Below, in pieces: positions 1 to 6,892 of a DNA stretch of 6,892 nucleotides. A program made the position numbers and the translations under genes. The notes under the pieces are model-generated. The model saw only the letters and a list, made by a program, of their open reading frames with translations, did not search any database and had not been told where the DNA came from. Origin of the DNA: a virus (lineage: Duplodnaviria > Heunggongvirae > Uroviricota > Caudoviricetes); IMG/VR virus record IMGVR_UViG_2695420617_000001, positions 1 to 6,892 of that record; one strand, written 5' to 3'. The stretch's first letter is position 1; each line of letters begins with the position of its first letter.

Positions 1-1461
1 ATTAGTAAGTGTCTTCGCCAGGAAGTCGAAAGAATCCTCGCGAGGCAATAACTTCAGGTCGTACTCACTCATTTGCTGATCAGAAAGCGGGGTATCGTAA
101 GTAGCAATGCCGTAGCGTGCATATTCATAATACGGGTCACCTTCATCAGGGCGCGGCAGAATTGCTTTGTTACCTTCAGGTATTGCGCCAGGGGCCGCCG
201 GACGCATTTGCAGGGCATATCGATATTCACCTACAGAGACTTCTGGTTCAGGCGAAGAGCTACCGGTATCCTCCGCTGGTTCAGGTTCGACGTTTTCCGG
301 TTTATGTTCTTCTGGTTGGACCAGGTATTCCGATACATTACCCGCTTTATAGGCTTTAAACAGCTTGCCGATCGCATCTGCCATGTCCACACCCTGTATG
401 GATTTAGCCTTGATCATGTACACGCTGCCATCCGAATCGGTTAACTGGATATACCCTTCGCCGTCCTCAATGAATTGCTTCATTGATGCACCATTACTGA
501 GCGTCACTTCCCCGTTCATATGCATACGATTTTTGATACTGGCAAGGCGATCCGTCATCGCGCGAGAGTGTCCACCAGTCGTCCCCGCAGGAGCAATGGT
601 ATCGCGCCCACCAGTGCGATTGAGCTGATCAATCTCCGTCTGCAAACGCTCATTCTCTTCATAAAGAGAATCCGCTTCCGATGCAACAGCGTTAATTTTC
701 TGCTCCAGATCTACCTTCTGCCCTTCTACCGCTGCCACCTGATCCACGAGGTCGCTCATGGCATCCTCTTTCTGGTCACTATCAGCCTGTAGTTGGGTTA
801 TTTCATCAACAAGGGCTTTTTTCTTCTTCTGCGCACGCTGAAATTTTGCCGAGTTTTTCTCTGCAAGGTTGGCAAGTTTCATGGTGACCTGCGCCAGCGT
901 CATATCACGTCCACTCATCGGAGCAACGGTGTGAGTAACGTCTTTTTTATTCAGTAAGAACTGGAAAGCAACCAGCGTATCGCTATTGGTGATCCGGTTT
1001 TCCGCTGTCGGGCTATGAAACAGAATGCTGATAGTCTGACCATCACTGAGCGGAATAATGGCTGGCAGGACCGGCAGCCCGTTAACGTTACGTGCCCGGC
1101 CAATTTCAGCACCGCCGATCGCGCGCGCGCCGCTCTGGGCCACATCCCCCGTTTTATCACTCCCCGCAGAGATTCCGGTACCATTCAGCTTCTGGTTCAA
1201 TGCCCGGACAAATGCCTGCATGGTCCGGTGTAACTGCAAACGAGTAGAACTAATCGCCTCCAGTAAATCCGTAGCACACCAGTGGATCGGCGTGTCATAG
1301 AAGAACGTAGCCTCGATTTCCTCCAGGGTGTTGGATTCCGTCATCAGATAGCGGTCCTCACCGGCCATTAATGCGCGATATTCATCATCAGTCACTGGCG
1401 GGGGAAGCACGTCAAGCCCAGGCTTGATCGTCACCCCTTTATTGATATTGAACTGTTCCAT
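1..1461 (-). CDS. Large structural/antirestriction-type protein, DarA-like (P1 dar operon); partial, C-terminal part lies beyond the window start
   Basis: Hand translation of the minus strand gives one uninterrupted frame from ATG (complement of 1459-1461) to position 1, about 487 codons, beginning MEQFNINKGVTIKPGLDVLPPPVTDDEYRALMAGEDRY. An AGGAA Shine-Dalgarno sits 7 nt upstream. It is missing from the ORF track only because no stop occurs inside the window. The many short plus-strand ORFs at 73-1300 are antisense shadows. It shares the motif TL..V....A.KNSAKFQ followed by a coiled-coil with the upstream 203-aa ORF. The DarA name rests on recalled P1 gene order and the Hdf paralogy, not on a search. 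Confidence 0.6.
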   Translation of the reverse strand, partial: MEQFNINKGVTIKPGLDVLPPPVTDDEYRALMAGEDRYLMTESNTLEEIEATFFYDTPIHWCATDLLEAISSTRLQLHRTMQAFVRALNQKLNGTGISAGSDKTGDVAQSGARAIGGAEIGRARNVNGLPVLPAIIPLSDGQTISILFHSPTAENRITNSDTLVAFQFLLNKKDVTHTVAPMSGRDMTLAQVTMKLANLAEKNSAKFQRAQKKKKALVDEITQLQADSDQKEDAMSDLVDQVAAVEGQKVDLEQKINAVASEADSLYEENERLQTEIDQLNRTGGRDTIAPAGTTGGHSRAMTDRLASIKNRMHMNGEVTLSNGASMKQFIEDGEGYIQLTDSDGSVYMIKAKSIQGVDMADAIGKLFKAYKAGNVSEYLVQPEEHKPENVEPEPAEDTGSSSPEPEVSVGEYRYALQMRPAAPGAIPEGNKAILPRPDEGDPYYEYARYGIATYDTPLSDQQMSEYDLKLLPREDSFDFLAKTLTN

Positions 1462-1462
1462 G

Positions 1463-2065
1463 TTAATTTCCTGCTTTCAGTTGCTTAAGACGGCGTTTGA
1501 GTTCGCCATTTCGGGCCTTTTCGTTATTGAGTCGGCCGGTATCCTTATCCAGCTTCGCCCGCAAATCAGTGATCTGCTGTTGATGGAAAGACACCGAGTT
1601 CTGCGCTGATTTATAAGCGGCAACCACCTGAGCATTCCGCTGTTTTGCCTCTTGCAGGCGCTGAAAGTTGGATTTTACTGCCGGTTTCTTGTCTACCGGA
1701 TTGGCAACACGTTTCGCTTTGGCGATCAGTGATTTCTGGAATTTTGCGGAGTTTTTGCGGGCCGCTTGCCCCATGACGGTACCAAGCGTCTTGATATCCG
1801 GCGACTGAGCGTTAGGAATAGCTTTTCCATTCAGCCTCACAGACGATATATCGCCAGTATCGTTTACCTGTATGGCAAGAATTTGTCCGTCGTTAAGAAC
1901 CAGCTTTGCGGTTTTAACTTTAACGCCATCTTTCGTTGTTGCGCGGTTGCTGGAGTCAACCTCAATTACCGTAACACCGGTTTTATTGATCGCCGCGATA
2001 AGGGATTTCAGCCCCTTTTCATTAACCTGGTCAAAATCGACCGTTGCATACTTATTTTTCGTCAT
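1463..2065 (-). CDS. Hdf-like protein (homolog of DarA fragment), paralogous to the downstream large ORF
   Basis: Track ORF 1463..2074 (-). I prefer the second ATG (2063-2065), which has AGGA 8 nt upstream; the first ATG at 2072-2074 has no SD. Stop TAA at 1463-1465 is 1 nt from the next gene's ATG (TAAcATG). Lysine-rich C-terminal coiled-coil. Shares KNSAKFQ and flanking residues with the large ORF at 1-1461. Confidence 0.6.
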   Translation of the reverse strand: MTKNKYATVDFDQVNEKGLKSLIAAINKTGVTVIEVDSSNRATTKDGVKVKTAKLVLNDGQILAIQVNDTGDISSVRLNGKAIPNAQSPDIKTLGTVMGQAARKNSAKFQKSLIAKAKRVANPVDKKPAVKSNFQRLQEAKQRNAQVVAAYKSAQNSVSFHQQQITDLRAKLDKDTGRLNNEKARNGELKRRLKQLKAGN

Positions 2066-2495
2066 CTGACACATCCTGTGCGAGATTTATTACGTAACTT
2101 CTGCGGATTTGCTGAGTAACAGGGAAAATCCGATACAACGGGTTAATGAACGAGTCGCCATGCGTAACCATGACGTTGAAATGCCACAGCCGTTCTCCTT
2201 TACCCATATATTCAGTGGGTATGTACAACCATTCACTGTTTTCGCCCTGTTCAGCCGACGTCAAACAACGTTGTTCGCCTTCAATCACTGTCGTTGGCTT
2301 CTGAACATCGCGGATCCAATATCTGACCGTTGCGCCGCGCAAAAACGGGAATTTAGACCGGTATTTGAACGGCACCCGGATGAAACCCGGTTTAATTTCC
2401 ACATCACCAAGTTCTAAATGCGTGATGTCCTTGCGTTTTAGCAAATAGCGATCGGCTAAGGCTAACGCAAGAGCGCATACACCCCAGCCAATCAT
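2052..2495 (-). CDS. Putative antiholin/lysis regulator (LydB-like), N-terminal signal-anchor
   Basis: 147-aa ORF with hydrophobic N-terminus MIGWGVCALALALA. Its ATG overlaps the stop of the upstream holin-like gene in an ATGA arrangement (2492-2495), indicating translational coupling. Assignment is by position after a holin and recalled P1 lydA-lydB order; no search done. Confidence 0.45.
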   Translation of the reverse strand: MIGWGVCALALALADRYLLKRKDITHLELGDVEIKPGFIRVPFKYRSKFPFLRGATVRYWIRDVQKPTTVIEGEQRCLTSAEQGENSEWLYIPTEYMGKGERLWHFNVMVTHGDSFINPLYRIFPVTQQIRRSYVINLAQDVSDDEK

Positions 2496-2821
2496 TTCCC
2501 ACCTCCCTTTTTCACCAAACTTGTAAGAACATTCAGAATGCTATCGATATTCACTCGTTTCATCCCTGAAATCACCTCATGACCGTTATTGCTGGCTATC
2601 GTTACCATTAAGTACGTAATTGATAACTCCCAGCCCTCGTGTTGCCCCAATAGGTACGCCACCGCGCCAGCTGTCACTGCAACAAAGATCTCCGTAACCA
2701 ATCCCAACAAATTGCCAGACTGGCGACCGTCTCGGACATCCATCAGGAACGTGCCTATCCCACCAATTACTGAAAGCAGGAGCGCAATAGCAACTGGAGC
2801 TAATTCCTGTGTGTCAAGCAC
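2492..2821 (-). CDS. Holin-like membrane protein (LydA-like)
   Basis: 109-aa ORF with GTG start (complement of 2819-2821) and a strong AGGAGG SD 6 nt upstream. Two to three predicted transmembrane segments (LAPVAIALLLSVIGGIGTFL, LLGLVTEIFVAVTAGAVAYLL) and a short charged C-terminal tail (KKGGGK), as is typical of holins. Confidence 0.6.
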   Translation of the reverse strand: MLDTQELAPVAIALLLSVIGGIGTFLMDVRDGRQSGNLLGLVTEIFVAVTAGAVAYLLGQHEGWELSITYLMVTIASNNGHEVISGMKRVNIDSILNVLTSLVKKGGGK

Positions 2822-2895
2822 AAGTTCCCTCCTACGTTGTCAGGAGGTAATGGTATGCAAAGTAACTTCTCAACCGGTTATGTTGCATAAGAGAC

Positions 2896-3159
2896 TTACC
2901 TATTCAACCGACTTTTGGAACCTTCAATAATAAGCCTGCTATTGGCGCTGAAAATAAGAACCATGCAGCTCTGAAGGCTTTCATTCATGTCCTTATATTC
3001 CGCGAGATACATGCCAATAAAGCCAGCAAGTACGGCGGAAATACATTCGGCCAGCAATTTCTTGCATGAGGACTCGTAACGGTTTTCACATAGCCCACTC
3101 AAATACGAATACACCCCACCAAGAAGGGATAACATCACGATATGTACATAAAATGTCAT
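2896..3159 (-). CDS. Small hypothetical membrane protein (87 aa), first gene of the minus-strand operon
   Basis: ORF with ATG at 3157-3159 and a weak AGGT SD. Two hydrophobic stretches (VHIVMLSLLGGVYSYLSGL, LLAECISAVLAGFIGMYLAEY). Same strand as the lysis/dar genes. Function unknown. Confidence 0.4.
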   Translation of the reverse strand: MTFYVHIVMLSLLGGVYSYLSGLCENRYESSCKKLLAECISAVLAGFIGMYLAEYKDMNESLQSCMVLIFSANSRLIIEGSKSRLNR

Positions 3160-3286
3160 TTTTTACCTATACAACAGTAAGTTGAACAACATTTGAGAAC
3201 GGTATGCACTTTGTGATTTCCACACACACTGGTTTTGTTAATTAAAACCTGTAGCTTGCAATAAATAACGATAGTGGGCAGAAAAT

Positions 3287-3472
3287 ATGCTAATAGGCTA
3301 TGTACGCATATAGACAAATGAACAAAACACAGCTATGCAGTGAAAAGCACTTGAAAGCGCAGGATGTGAGCTAATTTTTGCGAATAAGGCGAGCAGCAAA
3401 AAGGCTGGGCACCCTAGTTTAAAAAAGGTTCTGCGTATGCTTTCCAGAGGTGATACCCTAGTCTCGGACTAG
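3287..3472 (+). pseudogene. Decayed 5' remnant of a Cin/Gin-type serine invertase gene (two in-frame stops, 3' part deleted)
   Basis: Plus-strand translation from ATG 3287: MLIGYVRI*TNEQNTAMQ*KALESAGCELIFANKASSKKAGHPSLKKVLRMLSRGDTLV, then unrelated sequence. This aligns over about 59 codons with the intact invertase in this window (MQIGYIRVSTNDQNTDLQRNALNCAGCELIFEDKISGTKSARPGLKKLLRTLSEGDTLV), with TAG at codon 9 and TGA at codon 19. Homology ends at 3463, exactly at the left arm of a palindrome. Confidence 0.75.
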
Positions 3473-3474
3473 GG
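3456..3474. repeat. Perfect palindrome CCCTAGTC-tcg-GACTAGGG at the invertase-remnant breakpoint
   Basis: Arms 3456-3463 and 3467-3474 are exact reverse complements with a 3-nt spacer. The left arm is the last recognisable invertase codons (ccc tag tc = ..T L V). No flanking T-run on either strand, so it is not a typical intrinsic terminator. Confidence 0.7.
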
Positions 3475-3594
3475 ACAACATTTCGAGGACAGTTTTCATT
3501 AGCGGTCAGCAGGCGCTAGATACATCGAATTGATGTGCCGCGCGATAAATGTACCTATTCTATCAAGATAAATTACACCGACGCGGCATTAGAA

Positions 3595-4167
3595 TTACAG
3601 CTCAGATTGAGTTTGGCGCTTCTCTACAGGATGATAACGATAAATCGTCGATACACCGATATCGTAAATAATTGCCAACTGTTTCCTGCTGTAGCCATTT
3701 TCGATCAACCTCGCTATTTGCTCATGTTGTTCTTTTGTCAACTTCGGGCGACGTCCGCCAATGCGTCCCTGTTCGCGTGCAGCTGCCAGTCCGGCCAGTG
3801 TTCTCTCAACAATTAATTCACGTTCCATTTCTGCTAAAGCACCCATGACATGAAAAAAGAAACGCCCCATGGGTGTTGATGTGTCAATACTGTCTGTCAG
3901 ACTACGGAAATTAACACCTTTTTCCCGCAACTCCTCTATAAGCGTGATAAGGTGTTTCATACTTCTGCCAAGCCTATCCAGCTTCCAGACAACCAGCGTA
4001 TCTCCTTCTGATAACGTTCTGAGCAGCTTTTTCAAGCCTGGTCTGGCTGACTTTGTTCCGCTTATTTTATCTTCAAAAATCAGTTCACATCCTGCGCAGT
4101 TCAGTGCATTTCTTTGTAAATCTGTGTTTTGGTCATTTGTTGACACACGAATGTAGCCAATTTGCAT
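3595..4167 (-). CDS. Serine DNA invertase (site-specific recombinase, Pin/Min/Cin/Gin/Hin family)
   Basis: 190 aa from ATG (complement of 4165-4167), with GAGG SD about 9 nt upstream; the track's TTG at 4176 is probably not the start. Hallmark N-terminus MQIGYIRVSTNDQ with the catalytic serine context, then DTLVVWKLDRLGRS, MGRFFFHVMGALAEMERELIVERT, GRIGGRRPKL and a C-terminal helix-turn-helix (GYSRKQLAIIYDIGVSTIYR). Closest by memory to the Pin/Min subfamily. Confidence 0.93.
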   Translation of the reverse strand: MQIGYIRVSTNDQNTDLQRNALNCAGCELIFEDKISGTKSARPGLKKLLRTLSEGDTLVVWKLDRLGRSMKHLITLIEELREKGVNFRSLTDSIDTSTPMGRFFFHVMGALAEMERELIVERTLAGLAAAREQGRIGGRRPKLTKEQHEQIARLIENGYSRKQLAIIYDIGVSTIYRYHPVEKRQTQSEL

Positions 4168-4221
4168 GAAAAACAACCTCTTTGTTTAGTTAAAAATACA
4201 TCGTTGGTATAGGTAGGGATT

Positions 4222-4247
4222 AAGACTAAAACGTTGGTTTGGGGGAA
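4222..4247 (+). other. Invertase crossover site 1 (26 bp: 12-bp half-sites flanking a 2-bp core), boundary site next to the invertase gene
   Basis: AAGACTAAAACG-TT-GGTTTGGGGGAA. The inner AAAACG/xx/GGTTT pattern matches hix/gix/cix-type sites (for example hixL TTCTTGAAAACC-AA-GGTTTTTGATAA). It lies about 55 bp upstream of the invertase start. Confidence 0.7.
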
Positions 4248-4706
4248 GGCTCAGCATTGCCTGTTGGCGTGCCTGTTCCGTGGCCCTCAGCCACTCCGCC
4301 AACGGGGTGGCTGAAATGCAATGGTGCAGCATTTTCTTCTGAAAAGTACCCAAATCTGGCAAAGGCTTACCCTACTAATAAATTGCCGGATCTACGGGGC
4401 GAATTTATTCGCGGCTGGGATGACGGGCGGGGGATTGACTCTGGCCGTAATTTATTATCTGCACAGAATGATGCAATTCAGAATATTGTTGGTTCTTTCG
4501 GGCGTACTCAGCTTTTTAGAGATGTACTTAGTTCAGGGCCATTTAGTCAACATGGTCAAGTATTATCTACAGGCCTAAAGGAAACGGAAATTATTGAGGG
4601 TTATGGCTCTTATAACTGGACATTCGACGCCTCTCGCTCAGTTCGTACAGCATCTGAAACCCGTCCCCGTAATATTGCATTTAATTACATCGTAAGGGCG
4701 GCATAA
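4236..4706 (+). CDS. Tail fibre C-terminal cassette A (start-codon-less gene segment, silent in this configuration)
   Basis: Open frame from the right half of site 1 to TAA 4704-4706: GLGEGSALPVGVPVPWPSATPPTGWLKCNGAAFSSEKYPNLAKAYPTNKLPDLRGEFIRGWDDGRG, a unique core, then ETRPRNIAFNYIVRAA. The collar-like LPDLRGEFIRGWDDGRG motif is typical of phage tail fibres. No ATG or RBS; the track's M is a TTG. Confidence 0.8.
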   Translation, partial: GLGEGSALPVGVPVPWPSATPPTGWLKCNGAAFSSEKYPNLAKAYPTNKLPDLRGEFIRGWDDGRGIDSGRNLLSAQNDAIQNIVGSFGRTQLFRDVLSSGPFSQHGQVLSTGLKETEIIEGYGSYNWTFDASRSVRTASETRPRNIAFNYIVRAA

Positions 4707-4725
4707 AAACGTTGGTTTAGGGGAA
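4700..4725 (+). other. Invertase crossover site 2
   Basis: GGCATAAAAACG-TT-GGTTTAGGGGAA, same orientation as site 1. The left half-site contains the TAA stop of cassette A. Confidence 0.75.
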
Positions 4726-5175
4726 GGCTCGGCGCTGCCCGTTGGCGTGCCTGTTCCGTGGCCCTCCGCCACACCACCAACGGGGTGGCTGAAATGTAAC
4801 GGAGCAGCATTTTCTTCTGAAAAGTACCCAAATCTGGCAAAGGTTTACCCAACGTTAAAATTACCTGATTTACGCGGTGAGTTTATCCGTGGTTGGGATG
4901 ATGGGCGAGGTGTGGATGCGGGAAGGGTCATCTTAAGCATACAGGGGTGGTTAACAGGAAGTCATTATCATAATATTCGGTCATGGGACGCGTGGGATAA
5001 CACGGTATTGGTGCCAAATGACAGAGGGGGGGATAGTCTGTTGTCGACAGATAACGCCGTCCAAGAAGGAGCGATTAATGGTAAATTTACCAGTCAATAC
5101 AGAACGGAGTTATCTGGGGGGAATGAAACCCGCCCACGTAACATTGCCTTCAATTATATTGTGAGAGCAGCATAA
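4714..5175 (+). CDS. Tail fibre C-terminal cassette B (start-codon-less), translationally coupled to tfa
   Basis: The frame is open from site 2 (GLGEGSALPVGVPVPWPSATPPTGWLKCNG...); the track begins at an internal GTG at 4747. Unique core WLTGSHYHNIRSWDAWDNTVLVPNDRGGDSLLSTDNAVQEG. Ends ETRPRNIAFNYIVRAA with TAA overlapping the tfa ATG (TAATG at 5173-5177). Confidence 0.8.
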   Translation, partial: GLGEGSALPVGVPVPWPSATPPTGWLKCNGAAFSSEKYPNLAKVYPTLKLPDLRGEFIRGWDDGRGVDAGRVILSIQGWLTGSHYHNIRSWDAWDNTVLVPNDRGGDSLLSTDNAVQEGAINGKFTSQYRTELSGGNETRPRNIAFNYIVRAA

Positions 5176-5786
5176 TGGATAATGCGATATTAAATAGCGA
5201 ACTTATAGCCATACAGGCAGGAAACATTATCGTTTATAACTATGATGGTGGTAATCGGGAATATATTTCTGCATCAACTGAATATCTTGCTGTTGGCGTT
5301 GGTATTCCGGCAAATTCTTGTTTGGATGCTCCAGGCTCACATAAAGCAGGTTATGCGATTCTCCGTTCAGAGGATTTAAGTTCATGGGAGTATGTGCCAG
5401 ATCATCGTGGCGAAACTGTCTATAGCATTGACACTGGGAATCCCGAAGAAATCACGGTGTTGGGTGACTATCCGGAAAATACAACCACTATCGCCCCGCT
5501 AACACCATACGACAAATGGGATGGAGAGAAATGGGTGGTTGATACTGAGGCTCAACATAGTGCAGCTGTAGAGGCAGCAGAAACAAAACGTCAGTCATTG
5601 ATTGATACTGCGATGGATTCCATTAGTCTGATTCAGTTGAAATTACGGGCTGGACGGAAGTTGACGCAGGCAGAAACCACGCAGCTTAACTCCGTGCTAG
5701 ATTATATAGACGAGCTGAACGCGATGGATTTAACCACGGCACCAGATCTCAACTGGCCTGAAAAACAACTTTCTACAGCCAGTTGA
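5175..5786 (+). CDS. tfa: Tail fibre assembly protein (Tfa; lambda Tfa / Mu U family chaperone)
   Basis: 203 aa. Recalled lambda Tfa motifs match: IPANS..D.AP, (E/P)DHRG(K/E)TVY, Y(Q/D)KW(N/D)G..WV.DTEA and C-terminal T(S/T)APD(I/L)(E/N)WP. TAATG overlap with cassette B. Confidence 0.9.
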   Translation: MDNAILNSELIAIQAGNIIVYNYDGGNREYISASTEYLAVGVGIPANSCLDAPGSHKAGYAILRSEDLSSWEYVPDHRGETVYSIDTGNPEEITVLGDYPENTTTIAPLTPYDKWDGEKWVVDTEAQHSAAVEAAETKRQSLIDTAMDSISLIQLKLRAGRKLTQAETTQLNSVLDYIDELNAMDLTTAPDLNWPEKQLSTAS

Positions 5787-5791
5787 TATAA

Positions 5792-6298
5792 TTAATCCGC
5801 CCTCACAATATAATTAAATGCAATATTACGAGGGCGGGTTTCTGTACCTACATTTCCACTAATTTCACCATAACGTTTAACACTACGAGAGCTAATAGCT
5901 CGTAGTGAGGAAGGCACCTTATGACCGGGTTCGTCCGTTTTAACTATTCCCCCGTCACCGTATGTAGCTAGTATTCCTGGATTTACGCCTTCCCGTGCAC
6001 TTCCTGCGGCGAGTCCGTCCCCTGTCCATAATTCCATATAGTGTGCATGGTCCAAAATTGTGTGTGGCTGCCAATTAAGCAAAGCGCGGCCAGCATCCAC
6101 CCCGCGCCCATCATCCCAGCCGCGAATAAATTCTCCCCGTAAATCCGGTAATTTATTGGTGGGGTAGGCTTTTGCCAGTTTGGGATACATTTCAGAAGAA
6201 AATGCTGCACCATTGCATTTCAGCCAGCCCGTTGGTGGTGTTTCTAAGGGCCACGGAACGGGCACGCCAACGGGCAATGCTGAGCCTTCCCCCAAACC
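5792..6298 (-). CDS. Tail fibre C-terminal cassette C (start-codon-less, inverted orientation)
   Basis: Minus-strand frame from site 3 to stop (complement of 5792-5794): GEGSALPVGVPVPWPLETPPTGWLKCNGAAFSSEMYPKLAKAYPTNKLPDLRGEFIRGWDDGRG, a unique core, then ETRPRNIAFNYIVRAD. Its stop is 5 bp from the tfa stop (convergent). Confidence 0.8.
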   Translation of the reverse strand, partial: GLGEGSALPVGVPVPWPLETPPTGWLKCNGAAFSSEMYPKLAKAYPTNKLPDLRGEFIRGWDDGRGVDAGRALLNWQPHTILDHAHYMELWTGDGLAAGSAREGVNPGILATYGDGGIVKTDEPGHKVPSSLRAISSRSVKRYGEISGNVGTETRPRNIAFNYIVRAD

Positions 6299-6312
6299 AA
6301 CGTTTTTATGCC
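6287..6312 (-). other. Invertase crossover site 3 (inverted relative to sites 1 and 2)
   Basis: Plus strand TTCCCCCAAACC-AA-CGTTTTTATGCC, which is the reverse complement of GGCATAAAAACG-TT-GGTTTGGGGGAA. It contains the stop codon of cassette D. Confidence 0.75.
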
Positions 6313-6785
6313 GCCCTTACGATGTAATTAAATGCGATATTTCGTGGACGGGTTTCACTCCCGCCAGTATTACCAATACTCCCTCGAGAATGAAGTGTCG
6401 GTGATGGAATCAAATTCCCTCCTGTATTTGAGGCATCAAGCCCCCGTCCTTGTGTGTATGTTTTTTTGAAAATTGTCGCCAGCTCCCATTCATCTTTTGT
6501 GTCGTAACCATCATTGGCTACAACAATATGTCGGTGCTTTTCCAGCATTCCTGTCTGAATGCTCAATAAAGCACGTCCTGTATCAATGCCGCGTCCATCA
6601 TCCCAGCCACGAATAAACTCACCGCGTAAATCAGGTAATTTTAACGTTGGGTAAGCCTTTGCCAGATTTGGGTACTTTTCAGAAGAAAATGCTGCACCAT
6701 TGCATTTCAGCCAGCCTGTTGGCGGAGTGGCTGAAGGCCACGGAACAGGGACACCAACAGGTAATGCAGAGCCTTCTCCCAAACC
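6306..6785 (-). CDS. Tail fibre C-terminal cassette D (start-codon-less, inverted orientation)
   Basis: Minus-strand frame from site 4 to stop (complement of 6306-6308). Same conserved N-module (..AKAYPTLKLPDLRGEFIRGWDDGRG), unique core, then ETRPRNIAFNYIVRAA. Confidence 0.8.
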   Translation of the reverse strand, partial: GLGEGSALPVGVPVPWPSATPPTGWLKCNGAAFSSEKYPNLAKAYPTLKLPDLRGEFIRGWDDGRGIDTGRALLSIQTGMLEKHRHIVVANDGYDTKDEWELATIFKKTYTQGRGLDASNTGGNLIPSPTLHSRGSIGNTGGSETRPRNIAFNYIVRAA

Positions 6786-6799
6786 AACGTTTTTATGCC
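6774..6799 (-). other. Invertase crossover site 4 (inverted relative to sites 1 and 2)
   Basis: Plus strand TTCTCCCAAACC-AA-CGTTTTTATGCC. It contains the stop codon of the partial cassette E. Confidence 0.75.
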
Positions 6800-6803
6800 G
6801 CCC

Positions 6804-6892
6804 TTACGATATAATTAAACGCAATGTTACGAGGACGAATGGTTACATAATTAACCCCATCACCTCGTGAAGGCCCTGCAAATGAAAAACGG
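6804..6892 (-). CDS. Tail fibre C-terminal cassette E, 3' end only (continues beyond the window end)
   Basis: Minus-strand translation of 6892..6804 gives ..RFSFAGPSRGDGVNYVTIRPRNIAFNYIVRAA then stop (complement of 6804-6806). It has the shared C-terminal motif but a different preceding sequence, so it is a fifth distinct cassette. Confidence 0.65.

Follow-up and report, generated by a model that had tools for sequence, protein, structure and literature searches.

The window, the whole 6,892-nucleotide stretch of DNA that was analysed, is on the basis of its sequence a p15B-type Min multiple-inversion region of a P1-like phage-plasmid, and its features are collected in Table 1. Positions 1-3463 were 95-98% identical to P1, P7, and their relatives and comprised the backbone genes darA, hdf, lydB, lydA, and lydC followed by the start of cin. 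Every megablast match ended at 3463, and the alignments to P1 cin, to P7 cin, and to the cin fragment of a sister plasmid lineage were broken at the identical point, directly after GTC. The cin fragment of the window (psi-cin) contains two in-frame stop codons, TAG at codon 9 and TGA at codon 19. In comparison to P1, the P1cin promoter (3217-3260) has kept its -35 hexamer, has a spacer shortened by 1 nt, and carries TAAAAC in place of TAAAAT as its -10 hexamer; a promoter scan of positions 3100-4300 returned no sigma-70-like site. Because the promoter is damaged and that scan was negative, psi-cin is probably silent. It is read on the plus strand and faces an intact min-type gene on the minus strand, whose invertase is annotated as recombinase WP_001165547.1 in the identical stretch of plasmid NZ_CP026725. 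A resumption of cin homology past psi-cin, as a diverged middle or 3' end of that gene, was rejected on the basis of local alignments of positions 3464-3533 with cin and min on both strands, which gave scores at the level of shuffled sequences.

Table 1. Features of the window around the psi-cin junction and the min gene, with the basis of each assignment or a remark
Feature	Positions	Strand	Basis or remark
Decayed cin promoter and leader	3173-3286	+	87% identity to P1 upstream of cin
psi-cin pseudogene, first 59 codons of a P1-type cin	3287-3463	+	Alignment to P1/P7 cin
Palindrome	3456-3474	.	Left arm is psi-cin codons 57-59, loop is the junction, right arm lies in the cassette relic
Junction bases TCG	3464-3466	.	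Mismatched to both cin and the cassette; no parent assignable
Relic of the 3' end of a tail-fibre C-terminal cassette	~3467-3530	- (coding)	Without the last ~6-9 codons
min 3' flank	3528-3594	-	Common to pin-like invertase genes of P2-like chromosomal prophages
Intact Min/Pin-type serine DNA invertase gene, 190 aa	3595-4167	-	ORF listing
First mix crossover site	4222-4247	+	Site scan
Further mix sites	4700-4725, 6287-6312, 6774-6799		

The first-pass annotation, made from the letters of the window, had proposed that related genomes be searched for the junction at the end of psi-cin. The same junction was found in 160 complete E. coli records, in 148 PLSDB plasmids (from E. coli, Klebsiella, Salmonella, and Shigella), in 21 IMG/VR contigs, and in 24 metagenome contigs. 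The carriers are all at least 97.5% identical, and conservation among them can therefore do little to rule out a weak function. The closest known counterpart is the multiple-inversion region of plasmid p15B (GenBank X62121). According to the P1 GenBank record, P1 31570-31832 is 89% identical to p15B 7147-7408, and the homology ends at the same point of cin. A psi-cin fragment beside min on p15B was reportedly described in 1991 by Sandmeier, Iida, Hubner, Hiestand-Nauer, and Arber in Nucleic Acids Res 19:5831, a paper that PMC5786510 and PMC6906374 refer to. Common to the window and p15B are the P1-like backbone, a cin gene reduced to its 5' part next to an intact Pin-like gene, and multiple crossover sites accompanied by tail-fibre cassettes; we found no essential difference between the two, and the window seems to represent a present-day plasmid of that type. 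P1-like plasmids of such type are reported to have 98-99% identity to p15B min (PMC5786510, PMC6906374). The cin-cixL-C region of phage P1 (NC_005856) is homologous to the window over the 5' 177 nt of cin and the sequence upstream, with 87-89% identity, but differs in having a full-length cin whose 3' end overlaps cixL, in having no palindrome at codons 57-59, and in having no convergent second invertase gene.

Positions 3456-3474 read CCCTAGTC-TCG-GACTAGGG and form the perfect palindrome that the first-pass annotation had described, with 8-bp arms, no mismatch, and a 3-nt loop, 3467-3474 being the exact reverse complement of 3456-3463. The accompanying statement that the palindrome sits where invertase homology is lost also held, the match to P1 and P7 cin ending at 3463. 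As single-stranded DNA the element has a predicted folding energy of -7.1 kcal/mol (z = -4.2). RNA folding, which had been suggested as a check on both strands, placed the stem at the minimum-energy core of the predicted fold for the plus and the minus strand alike, with z values over 56 nt of -3.2 and -2.5, respectively. The left arm had been taken for the last authentic codons of the invertase. It is the final invertase-derived stretch, but one of its bases is unlike all the intact homologues examined: position 3460 is A in the window and G in P1, P7, the sister psi-cin, and ~95 intact invertase genes. The arm thus differs from the CCCTGGTC of cin by one transition to CCCTAGTC, and at this site P1, P7, the sister plasmid, and the ~95 genes read CCCTGGTC or similar. 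None of the ~95 intact genes has an inverted repeat at the matching site, the best having 3-4 of 8 positions paired, which is the chance level; the palindrome is not an ordinary part of such genes, and the right arm is missing from them, as had been anticipated.

The sequence that follows the palindrome had been called unrelated. This was correct in that it does not match the rest of cin, but it is not anonymous DNA, being a relic of the 3' end of a tail-fibre C-terminal cassette. Alignment of the relic with the reverse complement of a cassette from a related locus (L002, cassette ending at 6551) gave a local score of 57 as compared with 16.7 +/- 2.6 for shuffled sequences (z = 15), and the equivalent stretch of the sister locus L003 reached z = 25 against the cassette. 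In the ungapped comparison with the cassette over positions 3467-3500, 26 bases were identical, 7 differed by a transition, and 1 by a transversion. The right arm corresponds base for base to AATTAAAG of the cassette, which does not agree with the proposal that the arm is simply a freshly added inverted copy followed by unrelated DNA. The cassette AATTAAAG encodes the conserved F-N-Y of the C-terminus in all cassettes, and all functional cassettes and the sister lineage have AATTAA(A/G) at the right-arm site.

The sister lineage is represented by P1-like plasmid pEc-050-T0_3 (NZ_CP086513, locus L003) and by the loci L012 and L094. It shares with the window the Min protein, which is identical, the min 3' flank, the cassette relic, and the orientation of psi-cin. 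It differs in that its psi-cin, given in RefSeq as a frameshifted partial recombinase, reaches ~nt 300, ~125 bases farther than that of the window, where it meets a complete cassette end, and in that it has no palindrome. At positions 3688-3991 of L003, psi-cin is fused at an ATG microhomology to the complete inverted cassette end, including the stop codon. The window type lacks L003 3863-3991 (~129 nt), all that it retains is a subset of the L003 content, and the right-hand sequence is common to both junction types from window position 3476 rightwards. On this comparison the L003 fusion is probably the ancestral state of the junction. Because L003 keeps psi-cin to ~nt 300 together with the complete cassette end, the simplest reading of the window junction would be a later deletion of ~130 bases within the older psi-cin/cassette fusion. 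It would follow that the palindrome was not the cause of the invertase truncation. The first-pass annotation had proposed that the palindrome event created the truncation; the L003 psi-cin, already cut at ~nt 300, speaks against this, the window junction apparently being the later of the two.

The identity of the Min protein in the two lineages was accompanied by only ~80-85% identity in the flanking relics (3595-3700 versus 3476-3594, each compared with L003). Since the protein is identical despite this divergence, a recent exchange of the min module between the lineages, or a strong constraint on it, is suggested.

Ancestral states for both arms were taken from P1, P7, L003, and 11 cassettes. 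On this basis AATTAAAG of the cassette became GACTAGGG in the right arm by 4 transitions and 0 transversions, the other 4 bases being identical, and the next base past the arm, 3475, is a fifth transition relative to the cassette. Paired with one another, the ancestral arms have three Watson-Crick pairs, two G-T oppositions, and three C-A oppositions. The five transitions within the arms (four on the right and the G to A change at 3460 on the left) each turn a mismatch into a Watson-Crick pair, and the reconstructed ancestral juxtaposition has a predicted folding energy of 0 kcal/mol versus -7.1 kcal/mol at present. Positions 3461-3466 compared with the cassette show five transversions; of these bases, GTC fits cin and TCG fits neither parent.

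We consider it rather probable that the palindrome is a non-functional scar left by template switching between the two gene relics, and switching is the best explanation of the exact complementarity of the arms. The five transitions, each of which mends a mismatch, are what such an origin leads one to expect, and this part of the first-pass annotation, which had raised template switching or a snap-back, was supported. The anatomy of the site, the two types of junction, the cassette origin of the right flank, the transition-only relation, and the polymorphism at 3468 are direct observations; the order of events and the switch itself we infer from comparison of the sequences, as follows. An ancestral P1-type cin would have been cut at ~nt 300 and joined at an ATG microhomology to an inverted cassette 3' end that lay downstream of the incoming min invertase gene, a state that L003 would preserve. 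In the window lineage, a second event would have removed ~130 bases, namely psi-cin from nt 178 to ~300 and the last cassette codons. At that step or shortly afterwards, synthesis would have switched template, a nascent strand ending in ...CCCTAGTC copying 8 nt from itself or from the opposite strand and so producing GACTAGGG. The nascent end would then have annealed again downstream, at the site in the cassette relic that offered the best partial match, AATTAAAG, and synthesis would have continued from there. The outcome would be a perfect 8-bp inverted repeat that overwrote the old cassette bases in register, and later drift would account for the change of 3468 from A to G that is common among relatives. 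A one-step switch would thus account at once for the deletion, for the overwriting in register, and for changes that are all transitions.

In E. coli, template switching at quasi-palindromes is an established way in which inverted repeats become perfect (PMC7202029), and template-switch mutations are known to create hairpins (PMC8794818, PMC5941160), the last of these papers dealing with perfect inverted repeats in Proteobacteria. The window resembles these mutations in that clustered changes have made a repeat perfect and are predictable from the other arm. It is unlike them in that the event took place with or after a deletion of ~130 bases between pseudogene relics, and in that its mechanism is reached by comparison. 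As to the landing site, AATTAA(A/G)(G/A) ranked first for a nascent GACTAGGG within ~260 nt in two ancestor proxies, by a scoring that was devised after the fact and with a small margin. Three observations stand against a template switch. The loop reads TCG, where a simple snap-back would leave the GTA of cin. A wholesale rewriting of the right arm makes the zero transversions a coincidence of approximately p = 0.004, unless the partial match guided the landing. Lastly, a single switch is expected to place all changes on one arm, and one of the five corrections, 3460 G to A, is on the opposite (left) arm; it must predate the switch or be a separate event. Among the 21 viral, 24 metagenomic, and 148 plasmid instances, none had the same junction with an unconverted right arm, and in pattern scans of IMG/VR, metagenomes, and species-representative genomes together with PLSDB every instance was either the perfect form or the variant with G at 3468.

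A further pair of changes, 3416 G to A and 3418 G to T, was present only in the window and its closest relative, plasmid NZ_CP026725; all other sampled relatives keep the G-G form (CCCTGGG). The pair converts positions 3411-3418 from ACCCTGGG to ACCCTAGT, which is an exact copy of the left-arm sequence at 3455-3462, lies 44 nt upstream of it, and is the complement of the right arm. By its sequence it looks like a second templated mutation. It is possible, and we offer it tentatively, that the palindrome is an active hotspot of templated mutation in a widespread phage-plasmid family and not only a fossil. According to such a scheme, one switch would have given both the ~130-base deletion and the hairpin, and the arms would keep rewriting nearby quasi-repeats such as the one at 3416/3418. 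If this were true, the family would offer a natural series, orderable by phylogeny, for studying template switching in plasmid evolution.

The palindrome could instead be unlinked to the formation of the junction, an illegitimate deletion having been followed by independent substitutions that happened to reach 8/8 complementarity. Perfect 8-bp hairpins are indeed common: with loops of up to 10 nt, the window has 4 as compared with 1.2 expected, and the matching 97-kb plasmid has 81 as compared with 17.7 in shuffles. The palindrome was, moreover, singled out in hindsight, in a reading that looked for odd features, and transitions dominate the divergence of these relics (7 against 1 transversion over 3467-3500). 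It is the position of the hairpin that is unusual and not the hairpin per se. The probability of a hairpin centred within ~5 nt of a given breakpoint was ~0.01 at the observed density and 0.001-0.004 at the chance density, and a loop that spans the breakpoint has the corresponding expectation of ~0.001-0.01. The differences from the cassette are also concentrated, with 5 in the 9 positions 3467-3475 versus 3 in the next 25 nt, and five mismatch-mending transitions within 16 nt with no other arm change would be very improbable at a divergence of ~12-25%. Coincidence is therefore disfavoured by these comparisons, and we regard it as unlikely. We read the palindrome as an unremarkable scar of mutation in a locus that was already known, and its complementarity probably did not arise by chance.

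Another route to a perfect stem that we weighed is stepwise compensatory change, selected because the stem-loop has a function. The candidates were an RNA hairpin, which might stabilise the 3' ends of min transcripts that read through or might stop antisense transcription starting at the old cin promoter, and a DNA hairpin or cruciform to which a protein binds. In favour of such selection, both arms have changed in ways that each restore a pair, and the hairpin forms the core of the predicted RNA folds. The site itself showed none of the expected signatures. Scans for a terminator over positions 3100-4300 gave four terminator-like sites, all of them elsewhere than 3456-3474. The palindrome is followed by ACAACATT on the plus strand and by TATCACCT on the minus strand, with no run of T or U, and the absence of an adjacent T-tract that the first-pass annotation had remarked upon was thus confirmed. 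Rfam covariance models gave no match at E <= 1 over 3000-4300. A terminator, a promoter, and a known RNA family at the site were accordingly rejected on the basis of the scans of 3100-4300 and 3000-4300, and the RNA hairpin that had been mentioned as an alternative found no support. The other alternative that had been mentioned, a protein-binding site, fared no better: the CCCTAGTC/GACTAGGG half-site occurs at a single place in the 97,124-bp plasmid and is missing in the sister lineage, whose min gene is the same. The same lineage shows that the identical Min invertase occurs without the hairpin. The hairpin lies between pseudogene relics, >100 nt past the terminator-like hairpin that follows min, and the -10 hexamer of the cin promoter, whose antisense transcripts it might have blocked, is damaged.

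Variation at position 3468 also bears on a selected stem. This position is polymorphic (A or G) among relatives, G being present in 11 of the 21 IMG/VR loci, in 4 of the 24 metagenome loci, and in up to 47 of the 148 plasmids; three plasmids sampled from the last set all had G. The cassettes and L003 have A, which is for that reason taken as ancestral, and two sites that co-segregate with 3468 gave conflicting outgroup states. The frequent derived G weakens the predicted DNA stem from -7.1 to -5.7 kcal/mol, which argues against selection for the stem, while leaving a G-U pair in plus-strand RNA, which is compatible with it. Taken with the observations above, compensatory evolution appears very unlikely, and a functional reading of any kind has a low probability.

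Another alternative is that the right arm pre-existed in the donor as TCGGACTAGGGA to the left of CAACATT, with a hairpin between distant inverted repeats bringing the two ends together and so setting the end of the deletion. Deletion endpoints are said to have been associated with quasi-palindromes by Glickman and Ripley in 1984, and the ancestral arms do match at the level of purines and pyrimidines. The functional cassettes and the sister lineage, however, all read AATTAA(A/G), encoding the conserved F-N-Y, so that GACTAGGG is the derived form; the ancestral pairing has a predicted energy of 0 kcal/mol; and a search for a template of the 12-nt TCGGACTAGGGA elsewhere in the plasmid found no second copy in 97 kb. 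These results make a pre-existing donor arm highly improbable. Scarcely credible is a hybrid site from Cin or Min recombination at a quasi crossover site in cin, with the palindrome as its symmetry, since, although the crossover sites of this family are imperfect palindromes, Cin can use quasi-sites, and the best junction 26-mer (3452-3477) is in the top 1.1% of window 26-mers by a half-site matrix, that 26-mer scored -3.6 bits versus 24-25 bits for the four real mix sites, has no AAACC-NN-GGTTT core, and has its arms 3 nt apart in place of the 2-bp core cut by these enzymes, and the sister junction lies at an ATG microhomology in the stop-codon region of the cassette and not at a site core.

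No new system or mechanism is revealed by the window, and its importance beyond annotation is small. The junction explains why pipelines call a fragmentary recombinase beside a real invertase in hundreds of P1-like plasmids, many of them with resistance genes. The stretch between the two invertase genes is to be read as gene relics and not as regulatory DNA, and the palindrome offers a tidy natural example of a repeat most likely made by template switching.

Several features of the min side were noted in addition. A weak terminator-like hairpin with a 6-bp stem and the tail AATTTATCTT lies just past the min stop codon on the minus strand (3589-3575), and min transcripts would more plausibly end there than at the palindrome. 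At L017, a P2-like prophage from IMG/VR, a second invertase copy was found at 2093-2464, immediately downstream of the pin-like gene and on the same strand; its 5' end is missing, and it begins near the codons for STPMGRFFF. On account of this second 5'-less copy, invertase gene relics seem to recur in the min/pin 3' flank. The window has four mix sites and four tail-fibre cassettes, and positions 4222-6892 comprise two plus-strand cassettes, a tail-fibre assembly gene, and two minus-strand cassettes; L002 has six sites in another arrangement, with six cassettes on one strand at 6084-8430, though its flank is 100% identical to that of the window. Because the order of the cassettes differs despite this identity, the comparison of the two sequences indicates ongoing Min-mediated multiple inversion.
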